A DNA stretch of 64,000 nucleotides from Sandaracinaceae bacterium. GTDB lineage: Bacteria; Myxococcota_A; Polyangia; Polyangiales; Sandaracinaceae. The notes beneath the pieces are model-generated. The model was not told the origin of the DNA. It worked only from the letters and a program-made list of their open reading frames with translations, and searched no databases. The first letter of the stretch is position 1, and each line of letters starts with the position of its first letter. This document shows positions 29,393-41,145 of the stretch, one piece after another. A program made the translations under genes and the position numbers. The stretch spans positions 1-64,000 of the forward strand of contig JBHJHB010000117.1 of the NCBI GenBank assembly GCA_050331215.1. The letters run 5' to 3'.

Positions 29393-30727
29393 GTGAGCGC
29401 CCCGATCATCGCCCTCGCCATCCCCGCCTTCTTCGTGGCCATCGGCCTGGAGCTCGCGGTGGCAGCGCGACGCGGCCTCCGCGACGTCTACCGGACGGAC
29501 GACGCGATCAACAGCCTCTCCTGCGGCGTCACCCAGCAGGTGGCCGGCTTGTTCCTCAAGCTGTGGGTGATCGGCGCGTACGTGGCGATCCACGCGCACC
29601 TGCGCCTCTTCGACCTCGACGGGGGCTCGGTCCTCGTCTGGGTGCTCGGGGCCCTGGCGGTCGACCTCCTCTACTACGCGTTCCACCGCGCGAGCCACCG
29701 CGTCAACGCGATCTGGGCGCCCCACGTCGTGCGCCATCAGTCGGAGGCCTACAACCTGACGACCGCCCTTCGCCAGGGCGCCTTCCAGGGCCTGATGAGC
29801 GCGGTCTTCTACTGGCCCCTGGCCGTCCTGGGGCTCCCCCCGGCCGTGTTCATCGTCGTCAGCACGCTCAACACGCTGTACCAGTTCTGGATCCACACCC
29901 GCCTGATCGGCCGGCTGGGTCCCCTGGAGTGGGTCCTCAACACGCCGTCGCACCATCGCGTGCACCACGGCATCGACCCCGAGTACCTCGACAGGAACTA
30001 CGCCGGCATCCTGATCATCTGGGACCGGCTGTTCGGCACCTTCCAGCCGGAGCGGCAGGAGCCCAGCTACGGCACCGTCCGGCCGCTCCGCAGCTGGAAC
30101 CCGCTGTGGGCGCAGGTCGAGGCCTGGGCCTACCTCTGGCGGATGGCCCGGCGGACCCGAAGGTGGCGCGACCGCCTCGCGGTCTGTATCATGCCTCCGG
30201 AGTGGCGCCCCGCGGACCTCGGCGGGCCGGTCGCCCTCGGGCCGGTCTCCCCGGACCGCCCGCTGTATCGCAGGACGCTCTCCCCTGCGCTCCGGGCCTA
30301 CGTGCTGACGCAGTTCGTCGCCATCGGCCTCGCGACCGTGGCGCTGCTGGTCCCGGCGTCGGACGACCCCCACCTGGCGAGCGCGCTCCCGGTCTCGGCC
30401 TGGATCCTCGCCGCCCTCATCGCGTGGGGCGGCCTGTTCGAGGGGCGGCCCTGGGCGCGGCGCCTCGAGTGCGCGCGGCTCCTCGCGACGCCGCTGGCGC
30501 TCCTCGCTGCCTCCGCCGCGCTCCCGGCCCGCGCCGCGAGCCTCGGCTGGGCGATCGCGCTCTCGGCGGCGTACGCCGGCGTCAGCCTCGCGGGTCTCGC
30601 GCGGCTTCGTCCGGCGCGGGCGGGAGCTCCGTATCCGACGTCGGATCGACCCGAGGCGCCTCCGCCCCCTCGAGGGGCTTCTCGTAGAGGCGGTACCTCT
30701 TGTAGAGCGTCGACCCCATCGACTTGA
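29393..30727 (+). CDS. Fatty acid hydroxylase / sterol desaturase superfamily membrane enzyme (candidate lipid hydroxylase or desaturase)
   Basis: GTG start. Histidine boxes HRASHRV, HVVRHQ and HHRVHHG in a polytopic N-terminal domain. An additional hydrophobic C-terminal domain is present. The 3' end overlaps the convergent GNAT gene by about 145 bp. Confidence 0.7.
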   Translation: MSAPIIALAIPAFFVAIGLELAVAARRGLRDVYRTDDAINSLSCGVTQQVAGLFLKLWVIGAYVAIHAHLRLFDLDGGSVLVWVLGALAVDLLYYAFHRASHRVNAIWAPHVVRHQSEAYNLTTALRQGAFQGLMSAVFYWPLAVLGLPPAVFIVVSTLNTLYQFWIHTRLIGRLGPLEWVLNTPSHHRVHHGIDPEYLDRNYAGILIIWDRLFGTFQPERQEPSYGTVRPLRSWNPLWAQVEAWAYLWRMARRTRRWRDRLAVCIMPPEWRPADLGGPVALGPVSPDRPLYRRTLSPALRAYVLTQFVAIGLATVALLVPASDDPHLASALPVSAWILAALIAWGGLFEGRPWARRLECARLLATPLALLAASAALPARAASLGWAIALSAAYAGVSLAGLARLRPARAGAPYPTSDRPEAPPPPRGASRRGGTSCRASTPST

Positions 30728-31799
30728 TGCCCTGGTTGATCAGGTGGTTGTCCTCCAGGGTGTAGCTCAGCTCGCCCCACTGGTAGCCGCGCTGGTAGCC
30801 GCGCTTGGCCAGCTCGACGAACATCGCCGTCGCCAGGCCCACGAACTGCTTCTTGCGCTGCACGCTCGGCCGGACCCCGAGCATGATCAGGCGAGCGCTC
30901 TCGGGGGTCCTGACCTTGGTGCGCCACAGCAGCTTGAGGACGTTGAAGGGGAAGAGCTTGCCGCCGAAGTCCCGGGTCACCTCGTTGAGGTTGGGCACCG
31001 TCACGCACATCGCGGCCGGCTCACCGTCGATCTCGGCGAAGAACACCATGTTCGGGTCGAGGATCATCTTGACGTCCTCGGCGAGCTTGCGGCCCTCCGC
31101 CTCCGTCGCGGGGACGAAGCCCCAGTTGTCCTCCCAGGTCTCGTTGAAGATCTCCGTTAGAAGGGCGATCTCCTCATTCAGCTTCTTCGGGTCGATCGAC
31201 CGGATGGTGACGTTGTCCATGCCGGTGATCCGCTTCCACGCGCGCTCGGCGCGTGGCGGGATGTCAGGGACGACGTACTTCCAGGCGTAGAGGTCCTTGA
31301 CCTTCGTCAAGCCGGCGGCCTCGGCCAGCGCCCCCTGGTAGGGCTTGGCGTAGTTCATGCCGAACACCGCCGGCATCTCGAAGCCTTCGACCAGCAGGCC
31401 GACCTCGTCGTTCATGTTGAACGACAGGGGCCCCCGGATCGCCGTCATCCCTCGCGCGGCGAGCCACCCCCCGGCGCGGGACAGGAGGGCGCGCGCGACC
31501 TCCGCGTCGTCGACCGTGTCGAAGAACCCGAAGAACCCCGTCTTCTCCTGCCAGCGCTCCACGTGCAGCCGGTCGATCTGCGCCGAGCAGCGGCCCACGA
31601 GCTCCCCTTCCCTCCACGCCGTGAACAGCGTGGCGTCGAGGTGCTCGAACATCGGGTTCTTGGCCGGGTTCATCCGGTCCCGGAGGTCGAAGTCGAGCGG
31701 CGGGACGTAGTTTGAATCGCCGCCGTAGACGACCTTCGCCACCCGGAGAAAGTCGGCGACGTCCTCTCCGGGGGTGTGCTCGCGAATCTCGATGGGCAT
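30582..31799 (-). CDS. GNAT-fold N-acyltransferase, bacterial ceramide synthase (bCerS)-like
   Basis: 405-aa GNAT-like protein. It is the last gene of the PKS/alpha-oxoamine-synthase operon (stop of the synthase gene at 31802, start here at 31799). The size and context match the GNAT-type ceramide synthases described in Caulobacter and relatives. Confidence 0.6.
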   Translation of the reverse strand: MPIEIREHTPGEDVADFLRVAKVVYGGDSNYVPPLDFDLRDRMNPAKNPMFEHLDATLFTAWREGELVGRCSAQIDRLHVERWQEKTGFFGFFDTVDDAEVARALLSRAGGWLAARGMTAIRGPLSFNMNDEVGLLVEGFEMPAVFGMNYAKPYQGALAEAAGLTKVKDLYAWKYVVPDIPPRAERAWKRITGMDNVTIRSIDPKKLNEEIALLTEIFNETWEDNWGFVPATEAEGRKLAEDVKMILDPNMVFFAEIDGEPAAMCVTVPNLNEVTRDFGGKLFPFNVLKLLWRTKVRTPESARLIMLGVRPSVQRKKQFVGLATAMFVELAKRGYQRGYQWGELSYTLEDNHLINQGIKSMGSTLYKRYRLYEKPLEGAEAPRVDPTSDTELPPAPDEAARDPRG

Positions 31800-31801
31800 C
31801 G

Positions 31802-39564: not shown

Positions 39565-39856
39565 CTCATGCCTCCCGGCCCCCCGGCCCGTGCGACGCAA
39601 CCACGCCGGCCTCGGCGTCTCGAACGCACAGAGTACACGCTAGTAGTCATTCCCAGCGTCGGACGTTCAGTGGCCAGGTCCGAAACGCTTACGGTGACTC
39701 GCGGCCGGTCGTAGCTACGCTACGCCCGGCTCGCAAGTCCCAATCTCGATTCCTGGGCCGCCGAACGTCCCTGTTTTGGGACATACGCTGCGCCGGCGCA
39801 AGGATAGGGCTTCGGGGCCGATCGTCCCAGGCGTCGGTCGGGGGAAACCCCGGGGG

Positions 39857-40441
39857 TCAGTCGAGCCCGAGGGGCGGCAGCACGCGGCCGCAGCCCGTGA
39901 CGGTGCGGAGGTCCGTGCAGCTGTCCGGGTCGTCGTAGGGGCGGGGGATCTCCGCCCCCTCCTCGACGTCGTCGCAGTCGAAGCTCTTGAAGACACGTTC
40001 GCGCTCGTCCAGGTCCTCGTTCAAACACGTCGCATAGTCGTCGACGGTGACCGGACACATCGGCGCGGCGCCCGTGACACCGCAGAGCATACGAGGGTCG
40101 TCGCTGACCCGATTAAGGTCGATGCAGGCGGCGGTCGCGGAACGGCAACCGGCCTGGGCGGCCTCCTCGCCGATCGCCGCCACCATCGGGACGCTTGCCC
40201 GCGCGGCCTCGAACTCGCACTCGGCGGCGAACAAGCCTTCGAGATCGTTGCGGAGCAGCCAGTCCGCGGCCTCCTCGCAGAGCCCTTGGACCTCCTGGGC
40301 GTCGAGGTCGTCGCGCCCACGCGCGCCGTCGACGCTGGGCGTGAAGCTCGACGCGCACCCCACGCCGCCGACGAGCAGCCCCGCCCCGAGAGCCCAGGCG
40401 TGGAGCCGCGGGCCTCCCGCCCCGCCCGGTCCGGGCCTCAC
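39857..40441 (-). CDS. Small Cys-rich secreted lipoprotein, hypothetical
   Basis: GTG start at 40439-40441, overlapping the crotonase stop. Lipobox LLVGGVGCASS. The mature part contains 8 Cys and is Asp/Glu-rich (CEEAADWLLRNDLEGLFAAECEFE...CDDVEEG). Confidence 0.4.
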   Translation of the reverse strand: MRPGPGGAGGPRLHAWALGAGLLVGGVGCASSFTPSVDGARGRDDLDAQEVQGLCEEAADWLLRNDLEGLFAAECEFEAARASVPMVAAIGEEAAQAGCRSATAACIDLNRVSDDPRMLCGVTGAAPMCPVTVDDYATCLNEDLDERERVFKSFDCDDVEEGAEIPRPYDDPDSCTDLRTVTGCGRVLPPLGLD

Positions 40442-41145
40442 GATGCCCCCCCGATCCCGAACTCCGCCAGGTTGGCCTCGAGCGTGGCCCGGACGTGCTC
40501 CACCAGCGGTCCCCGCAGGCTCCGCTTGGTCTGAGCGAAGGGCCCCCCGGGAAGCTCCGCGAGGCGCTCGGCCTCCGCGCTCGCCTCGCGGTCGAGCGCC
40601 TCGAGGGAGTCGACGACCCGGTCGCGCCACCCGACCGCCGCGGCCTCCTCGGGGGGGTACAGCCGGGACGTCAGCACCGCGTCGGTCAGGGCCCGGGGGT
40701 CGAGCCGGGCCCGGGCCAGCTCGTGGGCGAAGATCGGCACCGGCATCCCCGCGGCGATCTCGTTCAGGCCGATCGCGGTCTCTCCTCGCACCCCGATCCG
40801 GCGGTCACAGGCGGCGAGCGTCAACGCGCCGGCAGCGATCGCGTGGCCCGTGCACGCGCCGACCACCGGCAGCGGAAAGAGCAAGAGATCCATCAGAAAG
40901 CGCGCGCCGTGGGCGACCAGAGCCACGGCGGCGTCGGGCCCCGACCGCATGACCTTCAGGTCGAAGCCCGCGCTGAAGCGACCCGGTCGACCCCGCAGGA
41001 CCACCGCCTTCGCGCCGGCCGCCCGCGCCTCGACCAGCGAAGAATCGAGAGCATCGATCAGCTCCGCGCTCAGCGCGTTGGCTTTGCCGTCGTCGATCGT
41101 CAGCCGGGCGACGGCCCCGATCCGCTCGCTGTGTACCGCGCTCAT
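40438..41145 (-). CDS. Enoyl-CoA hydratase/isomerase (crotonase) family protein
   Basis: MSAVHSERIGAVARLTIDDGKANALS...AVVLRGRPGRFSAGFDLK...GACTGHAIAAGALTLAACDRRI matches the crotonase fold and oxyanion-hole motifs. Confidence 0.7.
   Translation of the reverse strand: MSAVHSERIGAVARLTIDDGKANALSAELIDALDSSLVEARAAGAKAVVLRGRPGRFSAGFDLKVMRSGPDAAVALVAHGARFLMDLLLFPLPVVGACTGHAIAAGALTLAACDRRIGVRGETAIGLNEIAAGMPVPIFAHELARARLDPRALTDAVLTSRLYPPEEAAAVGWRDRVVDSLEALDREASAEAERLAELPGGPFAQTKRSLRGPLVEHVRATLEANLAEFGIGGAS

Follow-up and report, generated by a model that had tools for sequence, protein, structure and literature searches.

The window analyzed here, a 64,000-nucleotide stretch of a Sandaracinaceae contig from the phylum Myxococcota (JBHJHB010000117.1, assembly GCA_050331215.1), carries three co-directional open reading frames (ORFs) on its minus strand, evident from the ORF list and the translations. 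They encode a type I polyketide synthase (PKS), an alpha-oxoamine synthase (AOS) and an acyltransferase assigned by homology to the bacterial ceramide synthase (bCerS) family. On balance, we favor the explanation that the three genes are transcribed as one unit and that their product is an N-acylated long-chain amino-ketone or amino-alcohol, and thus a ceramide-type lipid. The evidence comes from the gene junctions, the domain content of the PKS, the conservation of the PKS–AOS pair in relatives, the family of the acyltransferase, and the recurrence of bCerS-family genes beside AOS genes of the same clade.

Gene order and junctions

The PKS and AOS genes meet in the sequence gaATGAgc, in which the PKS stop codon (TGA) shares bases with the AOS start codon (ATG); a first-pass annotation of this DNA had described the same ATGA overlap. 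That annotation also placed the acyltransferase 3 bp after the AOS, a distance that has to be corrected to 2 nt (cg) between the AOS TGA and the acyltransferase ATG. A separate acyltransferase promoter would not fit into the 2-nt gap, which points to co-transcription of the genes, probably with coupled translation. Two independent public assemblies, L012 and L013, have the same gene arrangement (comparison loci are given L numbers throughout).

The maximal PKS ORF spans 33175..39600, and translation probably begins at the ATG at 39564, which lies behind a GGGAGG and gives a protein of 2129 aa; gene callers picked the same start on identical public contigs. Between this start and the next gene upstream, which is lipoprotein-like, there are ~290 bp of non-coding DNA. 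No sigma-70-type promoter match was found upstream of the PKS, in a scan that is uninformative for this kind of organism, and the promoter and terminator scan of the locus as a whole gave nothing informative. The G+C content of the window is ~74%, and it drops to ~0.70–0.71 at 28001..32000 and 38001..40000, compared with 0.74–0.76 in the flanks; the lower values around the operon are a weak hint, from base composition, of a different history.

A single fully reducing PKS module

Pfam searches agree with the first-pass description of the PKS as a single, fully reducing KS-AT-DH-ER-KR-ACP module that lacks both a thioesterase and a reductase release domain (domain coordinates in Table 1). It contains one PP-binding acyl carrier protein (ACP) domain, past which there is just a tail of ~60 aa. 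On reading the translation, the catalytic motifs appear intact in every domain: the catalytic Cys and two His residues of the KS, the Ser of the AT GHSxG motif, the HxxxGxxxxP motif of the DH, the NADPH motifs of the ER and KR, the Ser/Tyr/Asn residues of the KR, and the Ser of the ACP DSL motif.

The best relative of solved structure is mycocerosic acid synthase (MAS), with which the PKS aligns almost end to end (residues 5-2074 vs 6-2102, 945 bits). MAS is an iterative PKS that passes its product to a partner enzyme, and the window PKS resembles MAS and the mycobacterial MAS-like PKSs in domain order, in length (~2100 aa), in its end-to-end alignment, in the absence of a thioesterase and in a presumed dependence on a partner for release. 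The partner itself differs, being an AOS here, whereas that of MAS is a PapA-type acyltransferase. The two also differ in the AT domain. In an alignment with the methylmalonyl-specific AT of DEBS, the window AT reads GHSVGE / RTEVAQP / VAYH where DEBS has GHSQGE / RVDVVQP / YASH, and the methylmalonyl-type motifs (YASH, GHSQGE and VDVVQ) are absent from it. By the established motif rule, AT motifs of this kind go with malonyl-CoA specificity and indicate a putative malonyl-type AT, unlike the methylmalonyl-type AT of MAS. Because a malonyl-type AT is combined with a full KR-DH-ER loop, the expected chain is saturated and unbranched. The PKS would either iterate from a short primer or extend a fatty-acyl starter, and its sequence fits both modes of operation. 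As it has no release domain of its own, the chain would be released by the AOS.

The PKS–AOS pair in relatives

The three nearest relatives of the AOS, which are on two metagenome-derived contigs (72% and 71% identity) and in a Paraburkholderia genome (48%), all directly follow a ~2100-aa PKS with the same 4-bp overlap. The overlap of PKS stop and AOS start is therefore seen in four independent lineages, and its presence in all three nearest relatives marks the PKS–AOS pair as a conserved two-gene module.

An AOS outside the characterized subfamilies

The AOS was aligned with the serine palmitoyltransferase (SPT) of Sphingomonas. The Lys of its TFSKAFG motif, named in the first-pass annotation as the Lys that binds pyridoxal 5'-phosphate (PLP), does align with the PLP Lys of SPT (Lys codon at ~32270..32272), and the motifs TFSKAFG, DAEAHMS and VDEAHS align to residues that we take to be K265, H159 and D231/H234 of the Sphingomonas enzyme, whose PATP loop motif is also retained. 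The position of a further SPT residue, presumably Arg378, is occupied by Gly in the AOS and by Val in the bona fide SPT of Sphingobacterium; this residue was dropped as a marker of serine specificity, since a bona fide SPT also lacks the Arg, and sequence offers no reliable guide to serine use.

None of the NCBIfam models for this superfamily reached its cut-off. The top match was BioF (TIGR00858, 249 bits vs a cut-off of 426), KBL scored 223 vs 460, and the Spt models scored 229, 215 and 191 bits vs cut-offs of 500, 670 and 640, respectively. The best matches in the PDB were structures of the Thermus 8-amino-7-oxononanoate synthase/2-amino-3-ketobutyrate CoA ligase (8s1y and 7poa). A neighbor-joining (NJ) tree was built with the Spt proteins of Sphingomonas, Sphingobacterium and E. 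coli, the Thermus AOS, E. coli BioF and Kbl, and PfSgaB from Pseudomonas fluorescens (sequence taken from the supplement of PMC12134224) as comparators, and in it the window AOS groups with its relatives in a separate clade with 100% bootstrap support. By these sequence comparisons the AOS fits no characterized subfamily and is not a canonical SPT, BioF or KBL.

An acyltransferase of the bCerS family

No significant Pfam or NCBIfam match was obtained for the acyltransferase (Acetyltransf_1 reached only E 0.0019), and a sequence search of the PDB returned nothing usable. Its AlphaFold2 (AF2) model (pLDDT 85) has a soluble tandem-GNAT fold like that of MshD, with PDB fold matches at E 1e-13; residues 380-405 form a predicted disordered tail, which reaches past the C-terminus of most homologues (generally 376-394 aa). 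A full-length BLASTP comparison with E. coli YghO gave 39% identity over 376 aa (E 3e-87), and a translated search of plasmid records returned E. coli YghO at 38.6% and Roseomonas genes, mislabeled 'dATP pyrophosphohydrolase', at 41.5%. In E. coli, the locus order is lptF-lptG / spt-acp-epimerase-acyl-AMP ligase / yghO. The Roseomonas gene sits between LptF/G paralogues and a nucleotidyltransferase gene, close to an acylglycerol-kinase-family gene that is a plausible counterpart of ceramide kinase, and this order agrees with that of Caulobacter CC_1156-CC_1152.

The connection from the window to bCerS runs via YghO, as yghO (ECD_02850) is the counterpart of the Caulobacter ceramide synthase gene CC_1154 (PMC9386255). 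By homology, the acyltransferase belongs to the bCerS/YghO/CC_1154 family, so that the bCerS-like GNAT of the first-pass annotation holds at the family level, on the strength of the YghO match and the tandem-GNAT model. bCerS has been known since 2021-2022, and no predicted transmembrane segment is reported for it (PMC11087976). The best matches of the window protein are from Sandaracinus, Polyangiales and Polyangiaceae. A separate observation in this family is a pair of tandem bCerS-family paralogues (377 and 400 aa) in a Thermoguttaceae metagenome-assembled genome (MAG; L002:7049-11128), which adjoins a divergent NAD-dependent epimerase/dehydratase gene, possibly a CerR, and has no AOS within 10 kb.

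Genomic contexts of the AOS clade

A metagenome scan found >538 relatives in the AOS clade, and gene contexts were tabulated for 84 loci, comprising 80 loci of the scan and L014-L017. A small ACP gene lies upstream of the AOS in 31 of the 84, and 17 contain an HMG-CoA synthase (HMGS)/ECH beta-branching cassette. A ~240-aa protein that has no Pfam family is encoded in 43 (L016:11392-12102, L017:11278-12006 and 41 more loci), and its gene almost always comes immediately after that of the AOS; this partner is absent from the two nearest PKS–AOS loci, and a homology search did not find it in the 64-kb window. Taken together, the ACP, HMGS and PKS contexts suggest that the clade uses ACP-bound acyl chains, which it seems to accept from varied suppliers. 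The version with a type I PKS, to which the window belongs, is a minority of the clade. One recurrent cluster consists of genes for KS, KR, HMG-CoA synthase, two ECH proteins, ACP and AOS (loci include L017, L027, L032, L042, L060, L063, L066, L070, L087 and L090), and we know of no characterized product of a beta-branching cassette that feeds an AOS.

Genes of the bCerS family occur within 10 kb of an AOS of this clade in seven of the 84 loci, which range in G+C from 32 to 62%. In L057 and L065 the AOS is followed by a bCerS gene 64 bp downstream, and in L027 an HMGS-cassette AOS is linked with a glycosyltransferase and a bCerS. In L068 (6788-12230, 41% G+C), genes for an MFS protein, a bCerS-family GNAT, an FA_hydroxylase, an AOS of the window clade and a short-chain dehydrogenase/reductase (SDR) form an apparent operon, with the appearance of a compact and complete ceramide-type gene set built on a non-canonical AOS. 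This recurrent, independent linkage argues that the products of the AOS clade are substrates for enzymes of the bCerS type. Co-localization of bCerS with Spt and CerR has been reported not to be required, and in the window the acyltransferase adjoins an AOS that lies outside the Spt clade, with no CerR homologue among the window genes. As a lead, this uncharacterized AOS clade may be worth more than the operon.

Comparison with known systems

The closest functional precedent is the PfSgaAB system of P. fluorescens MYb115, in which an iterative type I PKS (SgaA) and an AOS/SPT (SgaB) act with a KDSR-like SgaC, and for which very-long-chain sphinganines are the proven product (PMC12134224). SgaB strongly prefers serine, and PfsgaAB is described as a two-gene cluster plus SgaC, with no acyltransferase named in it (PMC12134224). 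PKS-derived bacterial sphingolipids were thereby established in 2024-2025, and a view of PKS supply to bacterial sphingolipids, which the first-pass annotation called unusual, as being without precedent is out of date (PMC12134224, 2025). Like PfSgaAB, the window combines a monomodular type I PKS with a directly adjacent, stand-alone AOS that must release the chain, and the AOS core begins at approximately residue 100, as in PfSgaB. Unlike PfSgaAB, the window locus has no match to an SgaC-type reductase and has a bCerS-family acyltransferase in the operon; its AOS is 34% identical to PfSgaB (145 bits) and falls in a different clade. Its host also differs, being a member of the Myxococcota, and the genus list of 6101 clusters contains no myxobacterial genus (PMC12134224).

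With the Spt-bCerS-CerR pathway (Caulobacter CC_1162/CC_1154/CC_1164; the yghO cluster of E. coli B), the window shares an acyltransferase that is a full-length homologue (39-41%) and lies beside an AOS. It differs in that the acyl chain would come from a PKS-borne ACP and not from AcpR/AasR, in that the AOS is outside the Spt clade, and in that CerR, LptF/G paralogues and head-group genes are lacking from the window. The fungal fumonisin (Fum1/Fum8), sphingofungin and myriocin clusters follow the same logic, in that an AOS off-loads the chain of a highly reducing PKS by condensing it with an amino acid in a Claisen reaction; these are eukaryotic toxin clusters with many tailoring genes, and their enzymes are related to those of the window at the level of the superfamily. 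To our knowledge, no GNAT-type ceramide synthase occurs in a fungal sphinganine-analogue cluster. A PKS-fed sphingoid route being already known from Pseudomonas, the window is a variant and not a new kind of system; what is new is the different AOS clade, the bCerS-family gene in the same operon and the myxobacterial host.

Proposed pathway and alternative explanations

In the pathway that we favor, the MAS-like, malonyl-specific PKS with its full KR-DH-ER loop would build or extend a saturated, unbranched chain, either iteratively like PfSgaA or by extension of a fatty-acyl starter, and would keep it as a thioester on its own ACP. The coupled AOS would then off-load the chain onto an amino acid in a decarboxylative Claisen condensation that depends on PLP. 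The most likely amino acid, favored by the SgaB precedent and by the linkage to bCerS, is serine, from which a base of the 3-ketosphinganine type would result; with alanine or glycine, the base would be a 1-deoxy or 1-desmethyl one. The bCerS-family tandem GNAT would N-acylate the free amine, and any reduction of the 3-keto group would need an enzyme encoded outside the window. For the Caulobacter bCerS, action on 3-ketodihydrosphingosine before its reduction has been proposed.

Several results weigh against this pathway, many of them concerning the tie between the acyltransferase and the PKS–AOS pair. The two nearest PKS–AOS loci (those at 72% and 71%) have no acyltransferase downstream, and the closest orthologues of the acyltransferase (54-63% identity) lie between a fumC or CarboxypepD_reg gene and UPF0093/comEC, with no AOS nearby. 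In an NJ tree of acyltransferases, the window protein nests in a Polyangia clade as sister (99% bootstrap) to this fumC/comEC-linked group; this nesting suggests that its gene is the one resident in the lineage, or was recently copied from it, and its position beside the AOS could, from the tree, be a recent juxtaposition. In the PKS-AOS-GNAT logic proposed by the first-pass annotation, the coupling of PKS and AOS stands, and the link from AOS to acyltransferase is not conserved in the closest loci or orthologues. The AOS, for its part, is equidistant from SPT, PfSgaB, BioF and KBL (28-34% identity), which, together with its fully supported separate clade, leaves no specific likeness to SPT of the kind that the first-pass annotation had assigned. 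As it is no closer than this to any characterized AOS enzyme and branches outside both SPT and PfSgaB, its use of serine can only be inferred. With the ~240-aa partner downstream of the AOS in most loci of the clade, and the HMGS cassette as a supplier, the clade may originally have made something other than a sphingolipid. Finally, the 64-kb window contains no homologues of CerR, the L068 SDR, AcpR, AasR or LptF, and no KDSR, dedicated ACP, acyl-ACP synthetase, LptF/G paralogue or head-group enzyme. For an SgaC-type reductase, no match was found in the window with the L068 SDR and E. coli CerR as queries (PfSgaC was not a query), and the sole SDR found (62504..63187) is in an unrelated context.

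If the tie to the acyltransferase is discounted, the PKS and AOS would make a free alpha-amino-ketone or amino-alcohol as a secondary metabolite (a long-chain base, a 1-deoxy base or a derived heterocycle), and the acyltransferase would be an independent, resident bystander. We regard this as unlikely, yet as an explanation to be taken seriously: the closest PKS–AOS pairs do without an acyltransferase, the acyltransferase is sister to orthologues in a conserved fumC/comEC context, SgaAB of P. fluorescens yields free sphinganines, and the insertion of a module would fit the G+C, which at 28-32 kb and 38-40 kb is slightly below that of the flanks. It is harder to reconcile with the 2-nt gap, which has no promoter room and implies co-transcription and probably coupled translation, with the recurrence of bCerS-family genes beside the AOS clade in independent lineages, and with the fact that a free long-chain amino-ketone is the type of substrate reported for bCerS (PMC11087976). 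A different amino acid, in turn, would make the operon the source of a 1-deoxy, fumonisin-like analogue, with alanine or glycine as the AOS substrate and N-acylation as a tailoring or self-protection step, not as part of membrane ceramide synthesis. No serine-specific clade includes the AOS, its highest NCBIfam score is for BioF, an alanine user, just over that of the best SPT model, its best PDB matches are the Thermus structures, and fungal PKS–AOS toxins use alanine. Even so, we consider such an analogue improbable, as the only characterized bacterial PKS-linked AOS strongly prefers serine, the AOS retains the PATP motif of Sphingomonas SPT, and there are no toxin-type tailoring genes (tricarballylate ester genes or P450s) among the nearby genes scanned.

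Least credible of all is that no special lipid is made, the AOS being a BioF or KBL of primary metabolism and the PKS a FAS-like housekeeping enzyme. TIGR00858 (bioF) is indeed the top NCBIfam match, and the PKS resembles FAS and MAS and has a plain saturated chain as its predicted product; however, the BioF and KBL scores are far under their cut-offs, the AOS clade is clearly apart from E. coli BioF and Kbl in the tree, no bioA/B/D/C or tdh genes are among the window genes scanned, and the start of the AOS overlaps the stop of the PKS in four independent lineages. The identification of the AOS as BioF or KBL was rejected on the scores and the tree. The first-pass annotation had itself listed findings that would speak against its proposal, and in each case the result went the other way: the AOS scores below the BioF and KBL cut-offs, the GNAT groups with bCerS, and no hidden release domain was found in the PKS.

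A ceramide-type product of the three-gene unit would have consequences beyond this locus. At present, sphingolipid production in bacteria is predicted by looking for the canonical Spt, bCerS and CerR genes; if our preferred explanation is true, an AOS clade that such screens may class as 'not Spt' can feed bCerS, and sphingolipid producers would be under-counted, notably in the Myxococcota and among uncultured bacteria of the sea and soil. A single unit of three genes would join two recently described parts of the field, PKS-derived long-chain bases and GNAT-type ceramide synthases, and this unit is small enough for heterologous expression, with the length of the ceramide base set by the PKS. 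A more far-reaching proposal, which we put forward as speculative and doubtful, is that the AOS represents a second, independent entry into sphingoid-type lipids, one that relies on a carrier protein and is widespread in uncultured soil and marine bacteria (the >538 relatives) and fed by an iterative PKS, an HMGS cassette or a plain ACP. Here it would be wired to a resident bCerS, with the PKS-made ceramides serving as a membrane lipid and not as a secondary metabolite, and with this route possibly taking the place of a canonical Spt.

Neighboring genes

The genes that flank the operon are listed with it in Table 1. Downstream, the FA_hydroxylase ORF converges on the acyltransferase ORF and shares 146 bp with it at the 3' ends (30582..30727). 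The encoded protein matches a protein of a Sandaracinaceae MAG at 100% identity, and its homologues form a large family labeled alkylglycerol monooxygenase by JGI. The first-pass annotation suggested that this enzyme could modify the base or the chain. That it acts in the pathway by hydroxylating the sphingolipid at C4 or on the acyl chain was rejected on account of the alkylglycerol monooxygenase label and the unlinked orthologues, those in L102 and L103 having no GNAT, AOS or PKS near them; nor does the protein show specific similarity to the FA_hydroxylase genes that lie beside bCerS in L019 and L068. In L103 (2713-7227), the orthologue lies behind genes for an aldehyde dehydrogenase and a GMC oxidoreductase, a context that fits a putative ether-lipid-cleaving, alkylglycerol monooxygenase-like catabolic role. 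The FA_hydroxylase gene is thus probably a neighbor, outside the system.

Upstream, the crotonase gene (NCBIfam PRK06213, 220 bits vs a cut-off of 171) and the lipoprotein-like gene, whose translation has a GVGC lipobox-like motif when read by eye, share 4 bp and run in the same direction as the PKS, from which the ~290-bp gap separates them. Their position just upstream is as the first-pass annotation gave it; a conserved partnership with the operon did not emerge. Both were rejected as pathway members, as different genes flank the three related PKS–AOS loci, a search for them among the 80 AOS loci gave no match, and the ECH genes found in HMGS cassettes are not related to them. The lipoprotein-like protein, in particular, has no similarity to the genes that flank the related PKS–AOS loci.

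Table 1. Features of the PKS–AOS–acyltransferase locus and its flanking genes, in window coordinates
Feature	Position	Strand	Basis
PKS, single-module fully reducing type I	33175..39564	-	Pfam, MAS alignment, start ATG and Shine-Dalgarno (SD) sequence
PKS KS domain	38266..39552	-	Pfam
PKS AT domain	37036..37962	-	Pfam
PKS DH domain	36055..36876	-	Pfam
PKS ER domain	34459..35424	-	Pfam
PKS KR domain	33859..34392	-	Pfam
PKS ACP (one PP-binding domain)	33367..33558	-	Pfam
AOS, 458 aa	31802..33178	-	Pfam Aminotran_1_2; SPT residue alignment
Acyltransferase, tandem-GNAT, bCerS/YghO/CC_1154 family, 405 aa	30582..31799	-	AF2 model, YghO homology, NJ tree
Non-coding stretch of lower G+C, presumed operon promoter and 5' untranslated region	39565..39856	-	Sequence read
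FA_hydroxylase-family membrane protein, 444 aa, alkylglycerol monooxygenase-like	29393..30727	+	Pfam, homologues
Crotonase-family gene	40438..41145	-	NCBIfam PRK06213
Cys-rich lipoprotein-like gene	39857..40441	-	Gene calls on L012, translation

The other window genes scanned gave no further lipid-pathway matches. Two of the proteins encoded elsewhere in the window are of separate interest: a TonB-dependent receptor with an N-terminal TonB_C domain in the same ORF (21633..24038, plus strand), and a 924-aa protein (25182..27956, plus strand) with Major Vault Protein shoulder and Vault_3 repeat domains, which is vault-protein-like and is encoded in a bacterium.

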